DNA of 55,812 nucleotides from a virus. A program made the translations under genes and the position numbers. Positions 1-55,812 of the stretch are shown here, in pieces. The notes below the pieces were generated by a model. That model was not told where the DNA came from, made no database searches, and saw only the letters and a program-made list of their open reading frames with translations. The stretch is from IMG/VR virus record IMGVR_UViG_3300008997_000047, one strand, 5' to 3'. Numbering within the stretch: position 1 is the stretch's first letter; every line of letters begins with the position of its first letter.

Positions 1-119
1 AGGGAGAATCAACTACCCTGGGCTAATCCTCAATCTGCACGGTCTTGGCCCATGAGGGCACGCGTTCAATCCATGAACTCTTGCCGACGGCGCAGACTAC
101 CAGGGGCACAGGACACCTC
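1..119. repeat. Terminal direct repeat, left copy (identical to 55694..55812)
   Basis: Bases 1-119 (agggagaatcaactaccctgg...caggacacctc) recur verbatim as the last 119 bases of the window. Non-redundant unit is 55,693 bp. Confidence 0.95.
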
Positions 120-1345
120 TTCCTGGGCCAGTCCGTCTCGCAGTCGGTGACGACGATGATGACGTGCGGTCGGGGCGTAGACTTGAGGGCGGCCTCAATC
201 CCAACGCGCATGTCCGTTCCACCTCGCCGGTCAATCTCCACGCGGGAAGCATTGGCCACCTTCTGGGCTGCGCCTGCGGACGTGTCGCAGCAGAACACAG
301 TGACAGAAGATCCTACTGCCCGGCAGATACCGTTGATTTCAGACAGCCCGCTCTCCACCATCTGGTTGCTCATGGAGCCGGACGTGTCGAGTACAAGGGC
401 AATCTCAATCTTGGGCTTGTACATAGCAGGGAGGATGATTCCTCCAAGCGCAGACTGCCTACGATTGATCTTCCTGTACGTGTAGTCCTCCGCTCCTGCG
501 CTCATCTCAATGGATGCTCGCACGATACGGGACAGCGTTTGCTGCCACGGGATTGTGGGAGGGGCGAGCGTCTCGTTTGCCCATTCTTGCCACTCGACAG
601 ACACGGAGCCGATGCCATTCTGCTGGACATGCTTCCGAACTTCCTCGGCTACATGCTGGCGGATAGCTTCCAGTTCTCCCTCGCTCATCCCTTGAGCCTC
701 CGGGCTATCCGGGTCGGCGTCCGGGTCAGGTGGCCCAAGCTCCCACTCACGTTCCGGGCCTCCAGCACCGGAACCACAGTCGCAGCCACCGGGCTGGCCC
801 TGTCCTTGACCGTCGCCTTCTCCCGGCTCATCTCCGGGTTGGCCTCCCCCGTCATCACCACCCTCGTCATCCTCGGGCAGGTTGACGTAGTACCACTCTG
901 CCAGTTTCCCCTCGGGCAAACCCAGCTTGTGGGGAAACACACACCAGCCCTGGAGATTCTCTTTCAGCACACGGTCATCATTGATCTCACAGTCACCGGC
1001 CTTGTTCCACCGTTGGTGGTCAGGCTTCATCCCGTTCATCACGGGCAGACGTTTGAAGCGAATGGCATGCCGCCGGAGAATGTGGCCGGCTACTTCATGC
1101 AGCAGGTCAGCAGCGAGCGCATCTAGCGTCTCCGTTGTGAGCATGATGGGGTCGTAGAAGACCCGTCCAAACTCATCACACGCCCAGCCTCCGCTCTTCT
1201 GCCGCAGTCCTGGCACCGGCACCAGGGGAGCAGCATAGAGCGCTCGGGCTACATACGGCATGAGTTGTCGTGCGCGTAAGCGTACAGCAGTGAGAGGGAA
1301 TCCATCCTCTCGTCCGCTGTGGTTTACAGTAGGTCTCGGTTGCAT
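23..1345 (-). CDS. VWA-domain protein with N-terminal HExxH metallopeptidase-like domain (DUF2201-like architecture)
   Basis: 440-aa ORF. HEVAGH (HExxH) motif near the N-terminus, a long D/E/G/P low-complexity linker, and a C-terminal VWA with MIDAS-like IALVLDTSGSM. ATG is preceded by GAGGAAAGAAC. The stop lies inside the terminal repeat. Confidence 0.8.
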   Translation of the reverse strand: MQPRPTVNHSGREDGFPLTAVRLRARQLMPYVARALYAAPLVPVPGLRQKSGGWACDEFGRVFYDPIMLTTETLDALAADLLHEVAGHILRRHAIRFKRLPVMNGMKPDHQRWNKAGDCEINDDRVLKENLQGWCVFPHKLGLPEGKLAEWYYVNLPEDDEGGDDGGGQPGDEPGEGDGQGQGQPGGCDCGSGAGGPEREWELGPPDPDADPDSPEAQGMSEGELEAIRQHVAEEVRKHVQQNGIGSVSVEWQEWANETLAPPTIPWQQTLSRIVRASIEMSAGAEDYTYRKINRRQSALGGIILPAMYKPKIEIALVLDTSGSMSNQMVESGLSEINGICRAVGSSVTVFCCDTSAGAAQKVANASRVEIDRRGGTDMRVGIEAALKSTPRPHVIIVVTDCETDWPRKRCPVPLVVCAVGKSSWIERVPSWAKTVQIED

Positions 1346-1381
1346 TGTTCTTTCCTCATTATCCTACGGGATGTAGGGAAT

Positions 1382-1409
1382 AGCCCACCCCCCATGCGAG
1401 GGATGGGCT
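1382..1409 (-). other. Intergenic stem-loop (AGCCCA...TGGGCT) between the 364-aa gene and the VWA gene; no U tract
   Basis: Inverted repeat read directly. It is followed on the minus strand by TAGGATAAT and GAGGAAAGAACAATG. Confidence 0.3.
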
Positions 1410-1414
1410 GTGCT

Positions 1415-2509
1415 CTACAGCCAGTCGATCCAACCGTTGCCGTCAAGGGCGTTGTACCAGTTGTCGCCCAGCGGACGTATCTTCCACTCTCCAGCGGAGC
1501 GGGTCACGAGCGCCCATGCGAAAACGGATACTACTTTTCCGGCGTTGCTCCTCCGGTTCAACCCAGCGTGGTGTACCTGCACAGGGAAAGACACATCCCC
1601 CTGGGCAGGAATCTCCACGGGTGGAGCGTCGATGATGAACACGCCCTTCACGTCGTCCCTTACGCGAGCGTCCTTCCCCAGCGAGGCGAACGGTTTCCCA
1701 GCAACATGGGTTTGCCAACGCCGCATGGAATGAACGCCTTGACAGAGGTTGTTCTGGAAGTATTGGTGCCATTTTCCTGTACGCTGTTTGATACGTGCTT
1801 GGAAAAGGCTCAATGCTTCCACCTCACTCCTCTTTTTGGGCTGGTTGTTACTCCATGAGCGATTCTCGGAGAGCCCACGAACCCAGCGACGGTACTTCCC
1901 AAAAGCAGGCTTCACGCCACACTTGGCAGCGGTGAGTGCATCCTGCCAGAGCACTTCCTGGGCACCATATAAGCCGTACCCCAAGTCGCTGATAGTTTGC
2001 TCCTGTCCCTTCTCCCAGCATGAATCGAGCGTAGCAACGCAGTCAGCGAACACCGCACGGGGTGGTGTTTCATAGCCAGCGTGCCTCTCTCGTTTCTCCT
2101 TCACCTTGAGCGCAAGCTGCCCCCACGGGCGCAACTCCGTGGGCAACTGGCGGAGGGCATACTTCACGGATATTTTCCGCAGTTCCATACTGCGAGACTC
2201 ATTCCACCGGCCCTTGTTCTTCACGCTTTCATACTGGCGTTCCTCGTTTACCCAGCGTGGAAGCGCGTGCTCCTCTACTGGACGGTCGCAAGGATCTTCT
2301 GCCGTGAGCCAGCGCCACCACCATAGAACTTCATGGCAACGGCAACGCAGGTCAGGATTTAGGGCACGCAGCATCTCCATGCCGGCGTCCGTATCCTCGT
2401 CGTGATCCAGTAGGGTCAGTCGTCCGTGGTTCGTGAGAACGATACGGTGCAGTGAGTTGCAACACCGTACCTTCTCAAGCGCCCGAACGTGGTCCGGGGT
2501 ATGCCTCAT
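1415..2509 (-). CDS. Hypothetical protein, N-terminal Cys/His cluster (possible Zn-binding), between the AAA ATPase and the VWA protein
   Basis: 364-aa ORF. Its ATG overlaps the stop of the upstream ATPase (ATGA). Residues 1-60 carry a CC..H..H..H..CRCH pattern. No family recognised. Confidence 0.7.
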   Translation of the reverse strand: MRHTPDHVRALEKVRCCNSLHRIVLTNHGRLTLLDHDEDTDAGMEMLRALNPDLRCRCHEVLWWWRWLTAEDPCDRPVEEHALPRWVNEERQYESVKNKGRWNESRSMELRKISVKYALRQLPTELRPWGQLALKVKEKRERHAGYETPPRAVFADCVATLDSCWEKGQEQTISDLGYGLYGAQEVLWQDALTAAKCGVKPAFGKYRRWVRGLSENRSWSNNQPKKRSEVEALSLFQARIKQRTGKWHQYFQNNLCQGVHSMRRWQTHVAGKPFASLGKDARVRDDVKGVFIIDAPPVEIPAQGDVSFPVQVHHAGLNRRSNAGKVVSVFAWALVTRSAGEWKIRPLGDNWYNALDGNGWIDWL

Positions 2510-3708
2510 GCAGCACCTCCCGCCGATGCGTCAGGACTCATGCCGACCATGCGGAAGATATTCATGACGCTGGCCATCCCCTTGGGCAGAGCCTTCAACG
2601 CGCCCTGAATGTAGAAGGGATTCGGCGAGCCATCACCCAGCTTGGGGGATGCCTGCATGCAGACCTTCTCCGCCCCGGGCAAGGCGTAGTCCACCATGCC
2701 AGCAGCATCGGATGCAGCGTACAGATTCCAGAACTGCTGCCACCGTTGAACCGTCGGCTCCTCTCGGAGCTTCACGCTCGCAGCCTCGAACAGCAGGAAG
2801 CACACATCACCACGCTGGGGGATAGGCCCGGCGTGTGCCAAGCACAGATCCACGTCAGCCAAGTCACGCAGCTTGCGGAACTCCATGAGCGCAAGCCCGT
2901 TGCCCTTGCCGACGAGACCTGACAAGCACATCTCCATCACCTCGAACGGAGCATGCACGGATTCACATGCAGCCAGCACGCGTTCCACCCATGTCCAGGT
3001 GCGAGGGCAGGCGACCGGTGTATTGACGCAGCGGATATCCTGGTCATCCTCGTAGGCTTCCGGGTTGGAGGACAAGAAGGCGTCCACCAATCCAGCAGCA
3101 GCAGGGATGTGAGACTCCCAATCGTCAGGGAGAATCAGAAGCTCGGGGTCAGGGAATCCCTGCGCCTTGCTTCTACGCCAGAAGTCCAGCGGCAAACGCC
3201 ACCGACGCTCGGACTCGAACCCCAACCACAGATACCGTGAGGCAGTGGGAGGCATGATGTCCGTGGCATTGGGCGCGATGTCCGGAGGATTCATCGCAGC
3301 GATGAACCGTGTCTCCGAGGGCAGACGCACATCTCCCACCAGCTTTGACTGGATGACCGTGAGCATAGCAGCACGCACCAGCGGAGAGCAGGTGTTTAGC
3401 TCGTCAAAGAAGATGACGGGAATCTGCCCGCGTCCAGCAGCAGCGATAGCTTCCCGGAACACATGACCGGGCAGCTTGACTACAGTTTGCTCGCCCGTGT
3501 CCGGGTCAGTGACAAGCACAGGCATTCCAAAGTCTGTGCCAGGGTCACACTGTGTGCCGATGATTGTCCCACAGAAATGGTAGCCGAGTGAACGACACAT
3601 TCCTTCTGCGATTTCGGTTTTCCCTACGCCGGCAGGGCCGACGAGGAGCGTAGCAATACCAGCTTGAAGACTCAAGCCAGCAGCCAGTCCCATATTGAAC
3701 AGTTGCAT
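2506..3708 (-). CDS. MoxR/CobS-like AAA+ ATPase (AAA_5-type)
   Basis: 400-aa ORF. Walker A GPAGVGKT, Walker B VIFFDELN, single AAA module plus a C-terminal extension. RBS GGAAAGGAAAAAACCAAAATG. Confidence 0.8.
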   Translation of the reverse strand: MQLFNMGLAAGLSLQAGIATLLVGPAGVGKTEIAEGMCRSLGYHFCGTIIGTQCDPGTDFGMPVLVTDPDTGEQTVVKLPGHVFREAIAAAGRGQIPVIFFDELNTCSPLVRAAMLTVIQSKLVGDVRLPSETRFIAAMNPPDIAPNATDIMPPTASRYLWLGFESERRWRLPLDFWRRSKAQGFPDPELLILPDDWESHIPAAAGLVDAFLSSNPEAYEDDQDIRCVNTPVACPRTWTWVERVLAACESVHAPFEVMEMCLSGLVGKGNGLALMEFRKLRDLADVDLCLAHAGPIPQRGDVCFLLFEAASVKLREEPTVQRWQQFWNLYAASDAAGMVDYALPGAEKVCMQASPKLGDGSPNPFYIQGALKALPKGMASVMNIFRMVGMSPDASAGGAA

Positions 3709-3754
3709 TTTGGTTTTTTCCTTTCCGTCAACGGCATTGTCGAACGGCCAGAGC

Positions 3755-3776
3755 CCACACGCCGTGAAGCGTGTGG
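3755..3776 (-). terminator. Stem-loop CCACACGC-N6-GCGTGTGG downstream of 3794..4042
   Basis: Perfect 8-bp inverted repeat read directly. No clear U tract, so terminator function is uncertain. Confidence 0.35.
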
Positions 3777-3793
3777 ACTGTAGCTATGGACAA

Positions 3794-4042
3794 TCAACCT
3801 TGTGCTGCGTAGCAGATGTGCCCCATCTCACGGGCAGCCATTGCAATCCTCTTCTCAGAAGAGAGCGTCTTCCACCAGACTGGATTGATCCAGACACGCC
3901 GATGCCCATCGGTCAGCATCCCGTAGGCAGACGGGGAACCCTCGTGGAAAGTGATGCTCTCCAATACTCCCGTTGGGATGGGGCCTGGAAACGCTTTCCG
4001 TGCGGCAGCGTTCGTCGCCAGTCGTTCATATGCTGTCAGCAT
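3794..4042 (-). CDS. Hypothetical small protein
   Basis: ORF track gives 3794..4045. The ATG at 4042 overlaps the upstream stop (TGATG) and follows GGAGGTG. Confidence 0.6.
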   Translation of the reverse strand: MLTAYERLATNAAARKAFPGPIPTGVLESITFHEGSPSAYGMLTDGHRRVWINPVWWKTLSSEKRIAMAAREMGHICYAAQG

Positions 4043-4329
4043 CACACACCTCCTTGGGCAGGGAGAGCGTTGTCCAGGAAATCCCGTAGCTCCAGGAGGG
4101 GATCGTCCTGGTCAAGATAGGCGTCCATGCTTTCCACTGTGATGTAGTGGACGTATTCAAAGAAGCCTTCCACACGGACGTACTCATCGCGGCACCACTT
4201 CACACGGTAGAGGTAGAAGAACAGACCACGAATCCAGTTGGGTCCAAAGTCCTTTCCAGGAATTTCATCCTGGTCTTCCACGTCATAGCCTGGAGCAACA
4301 CGCAACAGGTAGAGAATAGAGCGCAGCAT
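4042..4329 (-). CDS. Hypothetical small protein
   Basis: ORF track gives 4042..4332. ATG at 4329 after GGAGGTGTGTG. Coupled to both neighbours. Confidence 0.6.
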   Translation of the reverse strand: MLRSILYLLRVAPGYDVEDQDEIPGKDFGPNWIRGLFFYLYRVKWCRDEYVRVEGFFEYVHYITVESMDAYLDQDDPLLELRDFLDNALPAQGGV

Positions 4330-4442
4330 CACACACCTCCCTGGGCCAGCGCCACGAGAGCACTGCTGAATAGTTCAAGAAAAACCAGGAGCGCACAGCA
4401 CCCCATGGCAGCGTCAGCGATATCGAATCCTCGATTGTTCAT
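4329..4442 (-). CDS. Hypothetical 37-aa hydrophobic peptide (MNNRGFDIADAAMGCCALLVFLELFSSALVALAQGGV)
   Basis: Below the ORF-track cutoff; translated by hand. ATGA overlap with the upstream gene and TGATG overlap with the downstream gene fill the gap exactly. One hydrophobic stretch. Confidence 0.45.
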   Translation of the reverse strand: MNNRGFDIADAAMGCCALLVFLELFSSALVALAQGGV

Positions 4443-4696
4443 CCTTCACCTCCCATTTCCCTGATTACCCAGCCTGTCTCCGGGCTCCATTCCCTCACAG
4501 TTTTGGAGAATGCGTGGTGGTGAACCCAGTATTTTTCCATGTCGGAGAGCAAGACGTGCTTGGTTGCTCCTGTTTGGTTGTTGGTCAGCAGGAAGCGCGG
4601 CTCGTTGTCGAGGCTGGTGCCACTGATTGTCCACGTTAGCTTTCGGCTGCTAATGTTTCGGACAACATCACCGATCCCGTAGTCGTGGGTGGTCAC
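4439..4696 (-). CDS. Hypothetical small protein
   Basis: 85-aa ORF. GTG start overlaps the upstream stop (GTGA) and follows GGGAGGTGACAA. Confidence 0.6.
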   Translation of the reverse strand: MTTHDYGIGDVVRNISSRKLTWTISGTSLDNEPRFLLTNNQTGATKHVLLSDMEKYWVHHHAFSKTVREWSPETGWVIREMGGEG

Positions 4697-4929
4697 TTGT
4701 CACCTCCCTGGGCAGCGTCAATCTCCTCATCCCAGCAGTCGTCACAGGCTATGGCGTCTGCCCGTCCTGGACTGTAGAAGAACCCGAGGTCACACACCTC
4801 ACAGGTTGCGTCGGTAGCGGGGTAGTCAAACTCCGCATCTTGCTTTGCCTGCGCTGGTGTGCGCTCATCGGGCAGGTAGCCCGCGTAGTAGAACGAACCG
4901 GGGTATCCGTGGTTGTAGGGGAGACTCAT
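4693..4929 (-). CDS. Hypothetical small protein with CxxC...CxxC (possible zinc ribbon)
   Basis: 78-aa ORF. CEVC and CDDC pairs are 18 residues apart. ATGA overlap with the upstream gene. Confidence 0.6.
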   Translation of the reverse strand: MSLPYNHGYPGSFYYAGYLPDERTPAQAKQDAEFDYPATDATCEVCDLGFFYSPGRADAIACDDCWDEEIDAAQGGDK

Positions 4930-5138
4930 GGCAAGTCCATCCTTTCCCGGGCCAGCACAGGAGCGACAGGCTCCGGCTCCTCGGGCGTGGCAGCTTCAGC
5001 GAAACGAGTGTGGCTGAAGTTAGGATTGTGGTTGCGACACATCACACCGAACGCATGCACGAGGTGTTCTCGTACAGGCGTCGGCATCTCCGTGTCGTGC
5101 AGAATCTCTGCGATATCTTTGAAGTGCATTCGGGTCAT
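4926..5138 (-). CDS. Hypothetical small protein
   Basis: ORF is open to 5180, but the ATG at 5138 follows GGAAAGGAAAGAACC (strong RBS). Confidence 0.55.
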   Translation of the reverse strand: MTRMHFKDIAEILHDTEMPTPVREHLVHAFGVMCRNHNPNFSHTRFAEAATPEEPEPVAPVLARERMDLP

Positions 5139-5151
5139 GGTTCTTTCCTTT

Positions 5152-5169
5152 CCGTCTGTAGTAGAACGG
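5152..5169 (-). promoter_or_regulatory. GTTCTACT box A (imperfect palindrome CCGTTCTACTACAGACGG on minus strand)
   Basis: Lies between hairpin 5176..5203 and the RBS of 4926..5138. The 8-mer AGTAGAAC (plus strand) recurs at 5801 and 6203. Confidence 0.4.
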
Positions 5170-5175
5170 GAGAAA

Positions 5176-5203
5176 CGCACAGCCCCCCACCCTGGGCTGT
5201 GCG
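5176..5203 (-). terminator. Intrinsic-terminator-like hairpin after 5218..5601
   Basis: 10-bp stem CGCACAGCCC/GGGCTGTGCG with an 8-nt loop, followed on the minus strand by TTTCTCCC. Confidence 0.5.
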
Positions 5204-5217
5204 CTGCGCTCGTCCGG

Positions 5218-5601
5218 CTACCTGCGTTCGAACGCTACAGCGTCGATGCAGTCCTGTACCAGTGAACCAACGTCAGCCCACGAGAGGCCAGCGTCCGCAG
5301 CGCACGCTTTCATCTGGTCTACGGATTCCGGCGCGAACACTTGCGACAGCGTCTCGTGTTCCAGCAGCCGCCGGGCCAGTCGGCGGGCAGCACGTTCGTT
5401 ACACTGTGTGGAGCGGTCAACGTGCAGCCCGGTGGCAGCGTGAGAGACACGCCAGCCAGCGTGGCGATTGTTGTTGGGACCGTCGCCAGCCTCATTGACA
5501 GGGCGATGGACTACCAGTGGTCCCAGCGCAGCGCATGGCATGGTGATTCGCCCATCTTGCAGCGAGATTTCAAAGGACGCACGATTATTGAAGCGTGTCA
5601 T
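5218..5601 (-). CDS. Hypothetical protein
   Basis: 127-aa ORF. ATGA overlap with the upstream 51-aa ORF. Confidence 0.65.
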   Translation of the reverse strand: MTRFNNRASFEISLQDGRITMPCAALGPLVVHRPVNEAGDGPNNNRHAGWRVSHAATGLHVDRSTQCNERAARRLARRLLEHETLSQVFAPESVDQMKACAADAGLSWADVGSLVQDCIDAVAFERR

Positions 5602-5753
5602 GACACCACCTCGGGCTCATCGGCAGCGCCATCGCTGTCACTGTCAAGCGCAGCGTGATTCGGCTCGCCGTCGGCCACATCCTTGTAGCCCATGTTTACC
5701 AGCGTCATGTAGTCCACGCAGTCGAGGATCTCTCCGATTCTTTCGTTGTACAT
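5598..5753 (-). CDS. Hypothetical 51-aa acidic protein (MYNERIGEILDCVDYMTLVNMGYKDVADGEPNHAALDSDSDGAADEPEVVS)
   Basis: Below the ORF-track cutoff; translated by hand. ATG follows AAAGGAAAGAAGCACA. The stop overlaps the next ATG. Confidence 0.5.
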   Translation of the reverse strand: MYNERIGEILDCVDYMTLVNMGYKDVADGEPNHAALDSDSDGAADEPEVVS

Positions 5754-5791
5754 TGTGCTTCTTTCCTTTGCTCCCTATCCAGGAGCGGTAT

Positions 5792-5809
5792 CGTTCTGGT
5801 AGTAGAACG
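5792..5809 (-). promoter_or_regulatory. GTTCTACT box B (perfect palindrome CGTTCT-N6-AGAACG)
   Basis: Read directly. It sits immediately after hairpin 5813..5845 and upstream of the RBS of 5598..5753. Confidence 0.4.
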
Positions 5810-5812
5810 AAA

Positions 5813-5845
5813 GCAGCGCATACAGGCTAAGCCCGTATGCCCTGC
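5813..5845 (-). terminator. Intrinsic-terminator-like hairpin after 5856..6128
   Basis: Stem of about 14 bp (GCATACAGGC/GCCCGTATGC core, one mismatch) with a 3-nt loop, followed on the minus strand by TTTCGTTCT. Confidence 0.45.
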
Positions 5846-5855
5846 GCTCGGTCGG

Positions 5856-6128
5856 CTACACACCCGTGAGAGATTCAACGTGTCGCTCTACCAGGAGCAT
5901 GGCGCGGGCGGATACCTCACACCGCAGGAGGCCAGCAGCATTCCGCAGGCCACCGCCATAGATTGATTCCCGGTACTGTTCCCGCATTCTACGGGCATAC
6001 CAAAGGAGCGCGTCCGTATCGGTGACGAGGCAAGCGATTGTCTTGTCAGCTTCCGCAGTCGCCAGCACTTGCAACTGCTCGTGCGTGTACTGGCCCTTGT
6101 TGTCGTCGCAGTCTCTCAAATGGTACAT
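5856..6128 (-). CDS. Hypothetical protein
   Basis: 90-aa ORF. ATG follows AAAGGAAAGAAGC. Confidence 0.6.
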   Translation of the reverse strand: MYHLRDCDDNKGQYTHEQLQVLATAEADKTIACLVTDTDALLWYARRMREQYRESIYGGGLRNAAGLLRCEVSARAMLLVERHVESLTGV

Positions 6129-6388: not shown

Positions 6389-6412
6389 GCCCCCCCAGTT
6401 TCCCGGGGGGGC
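6389..6412 (-). terminator. Hairpin GCCCCCCC-N8-GGGGGGGC immediately after the stop of 6420..7106
   Basis: 8-bp G/C stem read directly. It is flanked by T/C-rich runs on both strands (TTTCTTTCT on plus, CCTTTCGCGTTTC on minus). Confidence 0.6.
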
Positions 6413-44530: not shown

Positions 44531-47074
44531 TTAGACCTCCGTCCACCGATACCCGGTGGCTCCTTCTGCGGTGTAGGTAAGCAACGCCCCGGTCTTTCTA
44601 CGCCGAGTCATCGCAGCCCCAAGAGCAGCCGCCGCAGCTTCGGCTTTCTCTTCGGGCACTTCCAAATAAAGAGCATCGTGTCCATGATTGATGAGCCATT
44701 CGAGGGGCATCACCACCCCCGGGCTTTCAACAGCTTCCGTGGCGAACCAATCTTGTATTCCGTAGAACAGTTCAATCATCGCCTCGTGGACGATATGGAC
44801 TCCTCCTGCTTGAATCCCGTGGTTCACCAGTTCGTTCAGCTTGTCCTCATTTCGGAAGTAGCGTCGTCGATCCCAGAACGAATCTCCAATGAAACCCTCC
44901 CTTCGGTAGCGGCTTTCAACCTTACGCCACCATCTGGGGATTTCTGGGTCGGCACGCTTTAGACCTTCGATGACTTGGCGAATGTCCTCTACTTGCATGT
45001 GAGAGAAAATGAGGTTGCCCTCGTCATCCTCGACGGACACGACTTGTTCGTGGATACGCTTCACGGATGCTGCGTACTGCCACGCATACCGGACGTTCTT
45101 GGTGATGTCTCGGGTTGCTTTGAACTGGCCTTTCCCCTTAGCTCTTCGGTCTTCGGGAGCGCCGTCCAAGCCCCACACCTCGGGCCCGTAGATGACTTCC
45201 ATCGTTTCATTGTGCGGGTCCAGGTTGTCGTTGATGATGCGGAGTGAGTTCATCGCCTGGGCTTCTTCTGCGATGAGGCGCATTTCCAACTGGTCCATGT
45301 CTGCCCCAACCAGTAGGTGCCCAGGGCGAGCGACGTACATGTCCCTGATAGAGTAGGGCTGGTTCTGCATGTTTGGATTGCTCGACGAGTAGCGCCCTGT
45401 TTTGGGTAGCCGGTTGTAGGATGGGTGTACACGGTTGACCGTTGTTCCCATGAGCGGACGGATGTATGTGCCCAAGAGTTTGCTCGCCTTGCGAAAAGCC
45501 CGAACGGAGTTGATGAAGTGGACCTTCTCCTCGTCCAGCCCGTAGTGGATGAGCATCGCCCGGAGCGTTGTGTCGTCTGTGGAAGGGTCGCCCGTCTTCT
45601 CCGAGTAGTGGTGAGGAGCAAGACCCCAATCTTTGAAGAGCAGCTTTGCCATTTGCTGGGTGCTTTGTGGGTTGAACTTCTCCCCACCGATGCTGTGGCA
45701 CTCCGCGAGGTGGTGCTTAGCCCTCTGTTCAAGCAGGAGGCTTTTCTCCTCAAGACGCTCTCGATCCAGGTGCATCCCGTTCGACTGCATGACTGTGCCC
45801 AACGCCTGGAGCATGTGCTCTCTGGGCAGAAGGTGTGTCTGCCGACGGTTCTTCACGTCTCGGGCAAGAGGGGTAGCGATTCGAGCAGTGACGCAGGCAT
45901 CCTTCCCGCAATAGACATGAAGCTCTCGGTTGGTCTTCGCCTCGGTTGCGGTGTGGTCAGCCTTCCAGGCTTCCGGGTTGTCGGTGTAGAAGGAGCCGAC
46001 AAAACCAAGACCGTGGGGGAGTTCGTTGTCTGCCAAGAGGTGCAGAAGCAGCGTATCTGCCGCGAGGTTGGGTGTTTGGCCGAGCCACTGTTCGCACACA
46101 AGACGGTCATACTGGCCCGCGTTGTGGCCTAAGATCGAAAGCTCGCTACATAAAATGTCGCGAACCATTTCTTTGATTTGCTTCTCCTGGGCTGGAGGCA
46201 TGAGAGCCTCGCCTTGGATGCCCAGGGTAGGGATGACGAGTGCCTCGTCCTCGTTGCTGATGGCAATGCACCGGACGTTGGCGGTCATCGGATCAATCGA
46301 ATCCGTCTCAACATCGTATGCGAGGGGAGCCCCCAGCGTCCGGAACCGCCGAAGCTGTTGGAAGACCTTGCCCGGATCGTTCGTGATTACGATCCGTGGT
46401 TCTATCCACTGGAGACTCCCGTTGAAGAACCTAAATGCTTTCCGAAGATCGTGCTGGAAAACTTCGCGATATGCGGGCATCTGAAGGACGAACGAGGGGT
46501 GAATAGTATACGCAACCCTAAGTGTGACCTTGGAATCCCAAGGGGCAGGCACCTCTTCACATCCTCCCCGAATGCCCATGATGGAGAAATCGCCACCACG
46601 GATAGCCTTTGTGGCAGTCTTCCCTAAACACACGATATTTTTTATACCAGTTTGCCTAAGCTCCTGGAGCAGCCTGCCACGGCACGCTGCTGCCGGGCGA
46701 AGGATTTGTTCTGCGGTGGGATTATCCCGCCGGAGTTTGCGGTTGGCCCGGGCGACCATGATGTTCGCCGCTTCCAAGTCGTTCTTGGGTGGGCGGCATT
46801 GAAGAGCGTTGGTGATGTGGCACAAGTCCCGACGAATGTTCAAGGCGTCCAGGGCTCGCTGGAGTTCCATTCCACCCGGGCCAACGAAGGGCCTCCCTTC
46901 CATGACCTCGTGAGTTCCGGGTGCCTCACCTATGAGAATCACCTTGTCGTGCGGATGCTTCTCCGGGCCGACCGGATCTCCGGTGTCGGCCGTGCGGAGT
47001 GGGCACCGCGCACAGCGAGGGGATGCCCCCCCTCCCGAAGGAGAGGGGGCCGGGTTTGTGACACACCCCTGCAT
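44531..47074 (-). CDS. Family A DNA polymerase with 3'-5' exonuclease and N-terminal family-4 UDG-like domain
   Basis: UDG-like CARCPL and LIGEAPGTHE..GRPFVGPGG. Exo motifs YDVETD, GHNAGQYD, YCGKDA. Pol motif A VGADMDQLEMRLIA. Motif B K..VRYAWQYAAS. Motif C GHDALYLEV. Confidence 0.9.
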   Translation of the reverse strand: MQGCVTNPAPSPSGGGASPRCARCPLRTADTGDPVGPEKHPHDKVILIGEAPGTHEVMEGRPFVGPGGMELQRALDALNIRRDLCHITNALQCRPPKNDLEAANIMVARANRKLRRDNPTAEQILRPAAACRGRLLQELRQTGIKNIVCLGKTATKAIRGGDFSIMGIRGGCEEVPAPWDSKVTLRVAYTIHPSFVLQMPAYREVFQHDLRKAFRFFNGSLQWIEPRIVITNDPGKVFQQLRRFRTLGAPLAYDVETDSIDPMTANVRCIAISNEDEALVIPTLGIQGEALMPPAQEKQIKEMVRDILCSELSILGHNAGQYDRLVCEQWLGQTPNLAADTLLLHLLADNELPHGLGFVGSFYTDNPEAWKADHTATEAKTNRELHVYCGKDACVTARIATPLARDVKNRRQTHLLPREHMLQALGTVMQSNGMHLDRERLEEKSLLLEQRAKHHLAECHSIGGEKFNPQSTQQMAKLLFKDWGLAPHHYSEKTGDPSTDDTTLRAMLIHYGLDEEKVHFINSVRAFRKASKLLGTYIRPLMGTTVNRVHPSYNRLPKTGRYSSSNPNMQNQPYSIRDMYVARPGHLLVGADMDQLEMRLIAEEAQAMNSLRIINDNLDPHNETMEVIYGPEVWGLDGAPEDRRAKGKGQFKATRDITKNVRYAWQYAASVKRIHEQVVSVEDDEGNLIFSHMQVEDIRQVIEGLKRADPEIPRWWRKVESRYRREGFIGDSFWDRRRYFRNEDKLNELVNHGIQAGGVHIVHEAMIELFYGIQDWFATEAVESPGVVMPLEWLINHGHDALYLEVPEEKAEAAAAALGAAMTRRRKTGALLTYTAEGATGYRWTEV

Positions 47075-54664: not shown

Positions 54665-54791
54665 GATCGGTAGTCAGGCGCAGGACCACCTACTCTTCTG
54701 GGCTAAGGGGGAGGGCCAGATAAAACATGGAATGTATGAAGGGACAGGGGCCCGAAGACCCCTGCCCCGAGTGTTCGCCAGCCGTCTCGGG

Positions 54792-55631
54792 CTATGCACT
54801 TATGGCTTGCATGAGGGCGAGCGCAGCGGTGGCTTCCACCTCGTCCGCACGGTCCCGCAGTTCCTTGAATGACTTCTGGAAGATGCCTTCATACCGTTGG
54901 AGGTACTCGTCCAGTTCCTGGGCCATGGTTTCACGGGACTTGAGCGCCCGCTTGCCGAGGTCACCCGACTCGATGGATTCTGCCAGGGCATCAAGCTTGG
55001 CTTGCACCTGGGTGATGACTGCATCACAGACAGCATCCACAGTCTCGGGCTCGGTGGTGGTGCGGAGCAAGTACATCTTGTTTCCAGAGTTCGCACCCTC
55101 AATCACCCGGGCCACCTGTTCCCACTTGGGCACGTCCTCCTCGGCCAGCCAGTAGAATCCACCGGATGGGCGGAGGGACACTCCCTTCAAGGATTCAACA
55201 CAGCGGACAAGGATCTGCCCCATCTGGGCGGCGGGCACCTTGCCCTTCTCCAAGGCAAACTCTTCCCGCACACGCTGGATGAGAAAGTGATCTCCCGGGC
55301 GGAAGACAAGGTACGCCTCGCCTCCCATGTGGCTGGGGTAGATGATCAGGACTTGCATCTGCTGCTCATGCACCATGTCCCCGTTGTCGTCGGTGCTTTC
55401 GTGGATGACTGCAAACCCAGCCTTCCCTTCCAGCGGACGGATCAACTGGCGTCGGCCAGGGTACACAGTTGCCAGGGCTCGACGGAGCGACGGCTTGTCC
55501 GTCATCTCTACGGGCACGCAGTGACTCAGGCCAGCAGGCTTGAGCCCGTCGTGGACTACATCCAGTGGCGTACCGTCAGTCAGGGACCAGTACCCGATGA
55601 CTCCATTCAGTTTCAGTTCTCGATGTTGCAT
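54792..55631 (-). CDS. Hypothetical 279-aa protein, immediately downstream (across the junction) of the VWA gene
   Basis: ORF is open to 55667. ATG 55631 follows GAGGAAAGAAC. The 20-nt start region is identical to that of the VWA gene. C-terminal coiled coil. No family recognised with certainty. Confidence 0.65.
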   Translation of the reverse strand: MQHRELKLNGVIGYWSLTDGTPLDVVHDGLKPAGLSHCVPVEMTDKPSLRRALATVYPGRRQLIRPLEGKAGFAVIHESTDDNGDMVHEQQMQVLIIYPSHMGGEAYLVFRPGDHFLIQRVREEFALEKGKVPAAQMGQILVRCVESLKGVSLRPSGGFYWLAEEDVPKWEQVARVIEGANSGNKMYLLRTTTEPETVDAVCDAVITQVQAKLDALAESIESGDLGKRALKSRETMAQELDEYLQRYEGIFQKSFKELRDRADEVEATAALALMQAISA

Positions 55632-55664
55632 TGTTCTTTCCTCACGATGCTTGATTGCACCAGA

Positions 55665-55692
55665 CAACCCACCGACCGGAGCCGATGGGTTG
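55665..55692 (-). other. Stem-loop CAACCCA-N14-TGGGTTG after the VWA gene stop
   Basis: 7-bp inverted repeat read directly. No U tract. Confidence 0.3.
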
Positions 55693-55693
55693 C

Positions 55694-55812
55694 AGGGAGA
55701 ATCAACTACCCTGGGCTAATCCTCAATCTGCACGGTCTTGGCCCATGAGGGCACGCGTTCAATCCATGAACTCTTGCCGACGGCGCAGACTACCAGGGGC
55801 ACAGGACACCTC
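55694..55812. repeat. Terminal direct repeat, right copy (identical to 1..119)
   Basis: Same 119 bases as the window start. Confidence 0.95.

Follow-up and report, generated by a model that had tools for sequence, protein, structure and literature searches.

The gene block and its genome

The IMG/VR virus record IMGVR_UViG_3300008997_000047, a stretch of 55,812 nucleotides (nt) that we call the window, carries a block of four genes on its minus strand. They encode an AAA+ ATPase (3708..2506, 400 aa), a 364-aa protein with a Cys/His cluster (2509..1415), a 440-aa protein that joins a zincin-like domain to a von Willebrand factor A (VWA) domain (1345..23) and, across the ends of the contig, a 279-aa DUF6744 protein. 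An original prediction for this DNA had described the first three genes as a module that wraps around the genome junction into the fourth. The open reading frame (ORF) listing bears out the three reading frames as well as the ATGA overlap between the stop of the ATPase gene and the start of the 364-aa gene. The junction is also as described: positions 1..119 are an identical copy of 55694..55812, a terminal overlap of 119 bp that represents assembly redundancy. The genome is thus either a 55,693-bp circle or terminally redundant, the contig junction is artificial, and the next minus-strand gene across it is 55631..54792. The same four genes are found on an uninterrupted metagenome contig, L001, where the spacer measures 83 nt, against 84 nt for the junction-spanning spacer of the window.

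The block lies directly upstream of genes for a primase (DUF5906-type), an SNF2 helicase, a PD-(D/E)XK exonuclease, a Sak4-like protein and PolA. No sigma-70-like promoter was predicted inside the block, which is probably expressed together with these replication genes. The window is a complete phage genome without a cultured relative. A blastn search against 50,697 phage records returned no match, and hence no relative at the nucleotide level, and the PolA of the window is at most about 25% identical to any cultured-phage PolA in the same records. Metagenomes, marine ones among them, contain related contigs 54-57 kb long, of which one (L026) is binned in a metagenome-assembled genome labelled 'Proteobacteria'. 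As anticipated, the four genes co-occur in all relatives of the window's phage lineage, and their order is unchanged even where the relatives' proteins are only 23-50% identical to those of the window.

An ATPase and a VWA protein of the N4 gp24/gp25 families

The Pfam assignments that had been forecast were obtained, namely AAA_5 for the ATPase, and DUF2201_N and DUF2201 with a complete metal-ion-dependent adhesion site (MIDAS) motif for the VWA protein. The ATPase (2506..3708, minus strand) scores 29.4 bits against AAA_5 (cut-off 22) over residues 20-158. Its best PHROG is phrog_1297 (5.5e-25), and BLASTP aligns it with gp24 of phage N4 over 268 residues (2e-8). The Walker A motif (GxxxxGK[ST]; GPAGVGKT at residues 24-31) and the Walker B motif (hhhhDE; VIFFDE at 98-103, within VIFFDELN at 98-105) are both present and intact, a sensor-1 Asn lies within AAMNP (137-141), and a conserved PRTWTW is found at 235-240. 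The Walker motifs are conserved, although some relatives deviate. The earlier label 'MoxR-like' stands at the level of the AAA_5 class but not for MoxR proper, whose family AAA_3 reaches 14.2 bits against a cut-off of 27.

The partner gene begins 1.1 kb downstream on the same strand and encodes a 440-aa protein (23..1345) in which DUF2201_N (2.3e-19; 70.5 bits, cut-off 23.2) and DUF2201 (2.7e-18; 66.7 bits, cut-off 26.4) follow each other in the expected order. It matches phrog_1314 (3.7e-46) and, by BLASTP, N4 gp25 (9e-7). The acidic Gly/Pro linker between the two domains spans residues 151-232 (22 Asp/Glu, 20 Gly and 10 Pro), and the predicted DTSGSM, at residues 320-325, belongs to a MIDAS that is complete (D320-x-S-x-S, T377, D401) and conserved in all aligned relatives. 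PHROG 1314, the zincin–VWA family, is mislabelled 'HNH endonuclease', and the label has spread to RefSeq/GenBank entries including that of N4 gp25 (L029, 3165..4307); no HNH domain was detected in the window's member of this family.

The ATPase–VWA pair as such is already known. N4 gp24 (ATPase) and gp25 (vWFA) belong to the 14-gene core of N4-like phages, with no function assigned (PMC4193335). In these phages (Schitoviridae; PHROG 1297 and 1314) the homologous ATPase and zincin–VWA genes are likewise adjacent, on the same strand and near replication genes. Unlike the window, however, N4-like phages have neither a DUF6744 gene nor a 364-aa gene, their two proteins are only ~19-25% identical to those of the window, and their zincin domains keep a canonical HExxH. 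By tblastn of the phage records, the ATPase matches jumbo phages of the PBS1/AR9 type, G17-like phages and Rhodothermus phage RM378, and the VWA protein finds N4-like phages and several jumbo phages. What is new in the present block is the triad with DUF6744, a Cys/His family with a mosaic C-terminal region, natural HExxH/HExxxH variants and a covarying leader element.

In Vibrio phage VCO139 (L003, 2627..4371) the N4-like ATPase gene is annotated as two pieces with an HNH gene between them, and in L025 the ATPase and VWA genes are separated by an HNH-like ORF (5423..5860) on the opposite strand. Judging by these two arrangements, the module appears to attract homing endonucleases.

An altered metal site in the zincin domain

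The zincin-like domain had been said to contain an HExxH site. The residues in question are present as HEVAGH at positions 83-88 (cat gaa gta gcc ggc cac), followed by WNKAGDCEIND at 113-123, but the spacing is that of HExxxH. In the close relative L033, whose VWA protein is 89% identical to that of the window and whose other three proteins are 57-96% identical, the motif reads HEIAH, and the difference is a clean 3-nt insertion of GGC. On this comparison HEVAGH results from a recent insertion into an otherwise canonical HExxH. L033 and the window form a natural pair, one with a canonical and the other with a probably inactive metal site. The motif lies at window positions 1082..1099 (minus strand), and the insertion is common to L001 and L002. 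A degenerate site in homologues had been named beforehand as evidence that would speak against the original prediction. The homologues are intact, with a canonical HExxH in 14 of the 17 loci that have a recognisable motif (16 phage or metagenome loci and N4), and it is the window's own copy that is altered. The domain as a whole is under purifying selection, with a ratio of nonsynonymous to synonymous divergence (omega) of 0.11.

These observations bear on the possibility that the pair is a split ATP-dependent metalloprotease, in which a protein unfolded or extracted by the AAA+ ring is passed on to the zincin for cleavage, in the manner of FtsH, SPRTN–p97 or Wss1–Cdc48. Its substrates might be proteins bound to DNA, or those of the host, that are removed as replication starts. 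Such a reading fits the 14 canonical loci, where HExxH is followed by a conserved WNxAxD, and also the weak similarity of one relative to SprT-like proteins (E = 0.004, below the cut-off) and the position of the module, which lies upstream of the replication genes here and, in N4-like phages, close to genes for helicase and polymerase. However, the window's copy is HExxxH and yet the domain is under purifying selection, which suggests that catalysis is not the constrained function here. In addition, the VWA proteins of the DUF6744 triads of Firmicutes have no zincin match in Pfam, and MoxR-class ATPases are not known to act as processive unfoldases. A split protease is an unlikely description of the module, although one that we take seriously. 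Since the motif is canonical in most loci, cleavage may have been part of the ancestral function; for the window itself, the HExxxH spacing combined with purifying selection makes binding or remodelling the probable conserved activity, and proteolysis doubtful.

DUF6744 accompanies ATPase–VWA pairs outside the lineage

The DUF6744 protein (54792..55631, minus strand, 279 aa) is recognised by Pfam with 29.0 bits against a cut-off of 27, a match that covers the C-terminal half only. Its invariant residues include R154, G157, G158 and Y160 (in SLRPSGGFYW) and G226, K227, R228, A229 and L230 (in LGKRAL). Among these, R154, G157 and G158 are invariant also across distant DUF6744 members, including the canonical copy from Moorella (5.6e-61). 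AlphaFold2 predicts an N-terminal part of mixed alpha/beta structure and a helical bundle at the C-terminus, with a predicted local distance difference test (pLDDT) score of 90 and a predicted template modelling score (pTM) of 0.81. The model has no match among PDB folds (best E ~0.01, template modelling (TM) score 0.15). A comparison with BFVD gives only four matches at E<=0.001, all of them viral and with no assigned function, one being from the archaeal virus HVTV-1. PHROGs contains no DUF6744 family, and a literature search found no paper that mentions DUF6744. The earlier description of the 364-aa and 279-aa proteins as two partners of no familiar kind holds, in that neither matches a family of known function in Pfam, PHROG, PADLOC, NCBIfam or PDB.

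We gathered DUF6744 loci from protein-context look-ups, IMG/VR, GTDB genomes and JGI metagenomes, and scored their neighbourhoods with purpose-built hidden Markov models. Clustering at >=70% identity groups the 55 loci into 27 clusters, 20 of which have at least ~2 kb of sequence on both sides of the DUF6744 gene. A VWA gene adjoins the DUF6744 gene in all 20. The ATPase gene is also present in 18 of them, and in the remaining two (L011 and L057) the contig ends at or inside the position where the ATPase is expected. Three clusters have neither an ATPase nor a VWA gene, and these have less than 350 nt of upstream sequence. The association does not depend on a fixed arrangement, as six gene orders occur: ATPase–364aa–VWA–DUF6744, ATPase–VWA–DUF6744, ATPase–DUF6744–VWA, DUF6744–ATPase–VWA, VWA–ATPase–DUF6744 and a divergent one. 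A canonical DUF6744 gene also leads the triads of Moorella phage MTATph1 and of a Robertmurraya chromosome, where it is followed by genes for an ATPase of the bpMoxR/AAA_5/AAA_lid_8 type and for a VWA_CoxE or VWA_2 protein, so that the linkage holds across different ATPase and VWA subfamilies. The 279-aa gene is thus linked to ATPase–VWA pairs far outside the window's lineage. These data point to MoxR–VWA–DUF6744 as a three-part system in mobile elements, joined in the present lineage by a variable fourth subunit.

By tblastn of all phage records, DUF6744 was found only in the Moorella phage, and scans of viral contigs for close relatives with the Moorella and P0071 DUF6744 proteins gave no match. 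The archaeal virus HVTV-1 (L063) encodes a DUF6744-like protein (gene 25), a 743-aa protein with a zincin, an acidic linker and a VWA domain (gene 57) and an AAA ATPase (gene 59), with gene 25 lying 15 kb from genes 57 and 59 on the other strand.

One could argue that all this is mere conserved gene order, and that the functions of the 364-aa and DUF6744 proteins are unrelated to the ATPase–VWA pair. The distance between the HVTV-1 genes is in line with such an argument, as is the 364-aa family, which is seen in one lineage only and always at the same position. For DUF6744, by contrast, adjacency survives six gene orders, two ATPase/VWA subfamilies and unrelated hosts, and the start of the 364-aa gene overlaps the stop of the ATPase gene by ATGA. 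We consider unrelated functions to be quite improbable.

A Cys/His protein with a mosaic C-terminal region

The 364-aa protein (1415..2509, minus strand) represents a new small family, here labelled MID. The Cys/His cluster noted earlier is present as C16 C17 H21 H28 H36 C56 C58 H59. Of these residues C16, H21, H36, C56 and C58 are invariant in an alignment of 29 sequences, together with W65 and with P123, which lies inside a conserved LPxxLR. The conserved N-terminal domain comprises approximately residues 8-145, whereas residues ~71-364 are mosaic and diverge fast. A HMMER search of 1.84 billion representative proteins yielded only 27 relatives at E<=1e-3, most of which match only the N-terminal ~140 residues or less. 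No match was found in Pfam, PHROGs, PADLOC, NCBIfam, PDB sequences, PDB folds or phage tblastn, a Pfam search with 22 members of the family gave no hit at E<=1 (SWIM included), and a scan of viral contigs for close relatives with the window's protein as the query found none.

AlphaFold2 models the N-terminal domain well (block-mean pLDDT ~85-96 over residues ~11-140, with a dip at 71-80, and 88-96 over residues 11-70 and 81-130) and the remainder poorly. The predicted fold comprises a beta-hairpin that carries C16 and H21, a third strand, and helices, C56/C58 being placed where a helix starts. In this model the layout is compatible with a zinc knuckle plus helix site. Chemokine-like Foldseek matches of the model were discarded as noise (TM ~0.4, 60-aa targets, E > 0.3).

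The gene is flanked by the ATPase and VWA genes in every context recovered from the window's phage lineage, and it evolves faster than the other three in every pairwise comparison. The 364-aa proteins of the window and L001 are 57% identical while their neighbours are 91-94% identical; the corresponding values are 34% against 61-78% for the window and L005, 39% against 71-82% for L007 and L018, and 29% against 48-63% for L009 and L026. The divergence is not evenly spread along the gene. Over residues 1-70 the synonymous divergence (dS) between the window and L001 is 0.21, like that of the flanking genes. The rest of the gene, beginning at residue 71, has a saturated dS and an omega of 0.3-0.4, and some of its DNA cannot be aligned. 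Simple positive selection was considered and rejected on these values, and a recombinational mosaic replacement fits the saturated dS and low omega better. The mosaic part, the 3' four-fifths of the gene, corresponds to window 1415..2300 (minus strand) and L001 1860..2726, where the dS of the flanking genes is 0.2-0.4.

Two paralogues in L027 (1060..2481 and 4034..5407) each contain a tandem duplication of the whole 364-aa-type unit, comprising both the Cys/His domain and the C-terminal region. The contig looks bacterial; its neighbouring genes encode 3D, Cu_amine_oxidN1 and CAP domains, and no ATPase–VWA pair lies nearby.

Comparison with other MoxR–VWA systems

Among described systems the block can be set beside the NorQ/NorD, CbbQ/CbbO and RavA/ViaA pairs, in which the gene of an AAA_5-class ATPase also adjoins that of a VWA protein with a complete MIDAS. 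It differs from them in the lack of a neighbouring operon for a known client, be it nitric oxide reductase, Rubisco or a respiratory complex, in the zincin-like domain of its VWA protein, and in an ATPase without a detectable MoxR lid or AAA_3 signature. The yehLMPQ genes of Escherichia coli offer a similar four-gene layout, with an uncharacterized gene between the ATPase and VWA genes and a Cys/His (SWIM) zinc-finger protein. The zinc-finger protein is placed differently, however, and the likeness is that of an architectural analogue only. Equating the 364-aa family with YehQ, or DUF6744 with YehM, was rejected with hhalign probabilities below 1% (0.4% for the 364-aa protein against YehQ).

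The chelatase I/D systems (BchI/BchD and CobS/CobT; phage cobS, PHROG 249) also combine an AAA+ motor with a partner that has an acidic linker and then a VWA domain with a MIDAS. If the block were of this kind, it would insert a metal or a cofactor as an auxiliary metabolic function. Among the PHROGs, phrog_249, 'porphyrin biosynthesis', does match the ATPase weakly in second place (5.9e-6), and the acidic Pro/Gly linker before the VWA domain resembles that of BchD. However, the best family of the ATPase is phrog_1297 (5.5e-25) and not phrog_249, the N-terminal domain of the VWA partner is zincin-like (DUF2201_N) and not AAA-like, and a large subunit of the CobN/BchH type is adjacent in none of the related loci. 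We rejected a chelatase on these grounds, and give metal or cofactor insertion hardly any weight.

A closer comparison is with the MoxR–vWA ternary conflict systems (Kaur, Burroughs, Iyer, Aravind 2020; PMC7159879), whose third component is VMAP, iSTAND, FtsH or a beta-propeller protein and whose vWA proteins carry fused effector domains. They resemble the present loci in the MoxR–vWA core with a conserved third protein, and in having one component that joins a conserved domain to a highly variable region. Moreover, the Firmicute DUF6744 triads use bpMoxR, the ATPase family that was defined from these very systems (PMC7159879). One might accordingly suppose that the block is a phage-borne conflict system, acting in superinfection exclusion or counter-defence, with the 364-aa protein as sensor or specificity subunit. 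The three- or four-component architecture around MoxR–VWA and the mosaic, rapidly diverging 364-aa protein would agree with such a role.

Other observations speak against a conflict system. The third component in our loci is DUF6744, and the loci lie in lytic-type phage genomes next to replication genes. Pfam finds no VMAP, iSTAND, FtsH, beta-propeller or effector domain in the four block proteins, including the VWA protein, and PADLOC gives two marginal P-loop matches only, with no significant match to a defence system. Because the defining third components are absent and PADLOC is negative, the block is not one of the described ternary systems. The omega of the variable region of the 364-aa protein is 0.3-0.4, not above 1, and the pair belongs to the 14 N4-like core genes (PMC4193335) and is present in every member of the lineage, which fits a core life-cycle function better. 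A role in conflict thus appears distinctly unlikely, less so than gene order without functional connection.

A probable virus-encoded protein-remodelling module

We think it probable, on analogy with the better-known pairs, that the block is a virus-encoded protein-remodelling module of the MoxR–VWA type, for which there are mechanistic precedents (PMC9976466, PMC13036017, PMC7159879). As in NorQ–NorD, CbbQ–CbbO, RavA–ViaA and the chelatase I/D systems, the ATPase ring would dock on the VWA protein, the MIDAS would grip an acidic residue of a client or partner, and ATP hydrolysis would then remodel that protein. DUF6744 would be an obligate adaptor or client-presenting subunit, and the variable 364-aa protein, attached to the core through its conserved N-terminal domain, would tune specificity. 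The zincins of most relatives could in addition cleave the target.

Several observations weigh against such a module. The ATPase passes the cut-off of AAA_5 only, and the Pfam scan detected no AAA lid family (AAA_lid_8 or similar); some relatives have a non-canonical Walker A (GPAGSAKT, GPAGDTKS) or Walker B (EE) motif. The loci of the linkage survey were found via DUF6744 itself, and the linkage is consequently one-directional: N4-like and jumbo phages have the pair without a DUF6744 or a 364-aa gene, which makes both of these accessory. As the 364-aa family is confined to one phage lineage, its constant position could reflect inherited synteny. Moreover, the relative L024 keeps the first half of the Cys/His motif and has lost the CxC pair, and distant relatives of the N-terminal domain (L027) occur away from any ATPase–VWA pair.

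A broader version of the remodelling hypothesis is that DUF6744–MoxR–VWA constitutes an undescribed three-part remodelling system in bacterial viruses, prophage-like elements and possibly archaeal viruses, which in this marine-type phage lineage has acquired a zinc-finger subunit with a target-recognition region swapped by recombination. We put this forward tentatively, as an idea that may well fail. If true, the module would be a programmable device that disables or re-wires proteins of the host, such as its defence or replication factors, and the long-unexplained N4 core genes gp24 and gp25 would have a function. If the target is a host protein, the module would represent a new class of phage takeover or counter-defence machinery. 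DUF6744 is the constant neighbour of ATPase–VWA pairs across rearrangements, subfamilies and hosts, and one lineage adds a mosaic, fast-evolving protein that is a putative zinc finger. Three 'unknowns' thereby turn into one defined and testable complex. The near-identical phages with a canonical or a disrupted zincin provide natural variants for such experiments.

Hairpins and a covarying leader element

The spacers of the block contain strong hairpins. The stem-loop that had been noticed between the 364-aa and 440-aa genes is confirmed as a 12-bp GC-rich stem with a tetraloop at 1409..1382 (minus strand; spacer fold -30 kcal/mol, z = -3.3), and relatives have a hairpin at the position equivalent to 1382..1409. 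A second 12-bp GC-rich tetraloop hairpin lies upstream of the ATPase gene (3752..3779, minus strand; spacer fold -34.6 kcal/mol, z = -4.4); it has no U tract, and its arm sequence is related to those of other hairpins of the module. A third, predicted with a 12-bp stem and a UUCG tetraloop (54741..54768, minus strand), is found 24 nt past the DUF6744 stop codon and is the probable 3' end of the block. None of the intergenic hairpins has a U tract, and canonical intrinsic terminators were thereby ruled out. Neither these hairpins nor the DUF6744 leader element described below match a family in Rfam.

In minus-strand transcripts of the whole genome only six strong tetraloop hairpins (stems of at least 10 bp) are predicted, and four of them bracket module genes, preceding the ATPase, VWA and DUF6744 genes and following the DUF6744 gene. 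The two hairpins away from the module are at 6412..6389 and 47050..47025, also on the minus strand. Three hairpins have related arms, of the form CA[GA][CT]CCA... / ...GGG[CT]T.

The DUF6744 gene is preceded by a 5' element (55649..55693, minus strand) identified by alignment, covariation and folding. It consists of a 13-bp hairpin (55693..55664) and, at 55661..55649, the box GGTGCAATCAAGC. The first 12 bases of this box, GGTGCAATCAAG, do not vary across an alignment of 11 sequences. The same element occurs upstream of the DUF6744 gene in ten loci (L001, L013, L017, L018, L020, L021, L026, L033, L036 and L041), 20-40 nt from the start codon, and is kept even where the proteins are only ~40% identical. 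Compensatory changes are seen in 10 of the 13 stem pairs, and the spacer fold has z = -4.8. The element is possibly an RNA processing or stabiliser site, or a phage-specific promoter or operator. In L013 a second copy lies upstream of the ATPase gene.

Finally, the VWA and DUF6744 genes had been noted to share an identical 20-nt translation start region. Exactly two copies of it do exist in the window, at 1339..1358 and 55625..55644, where none is expected by chance, but the idea of a specific shared regulatory element does not hold. The region is largely the consensus ribosome-binding site, and the two start regions do not resemble each other in relatives (e.g. L005), so we rejected a dedicated element. 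In this arm of the genome the consensus is AGGAAAGAAC(A/C)ATG, with six minus-strand matches at <=3 mismatches, a number reached in none of 100 shuffles. Both genes start with Met-Gln, which adds to the 20-nt identity.

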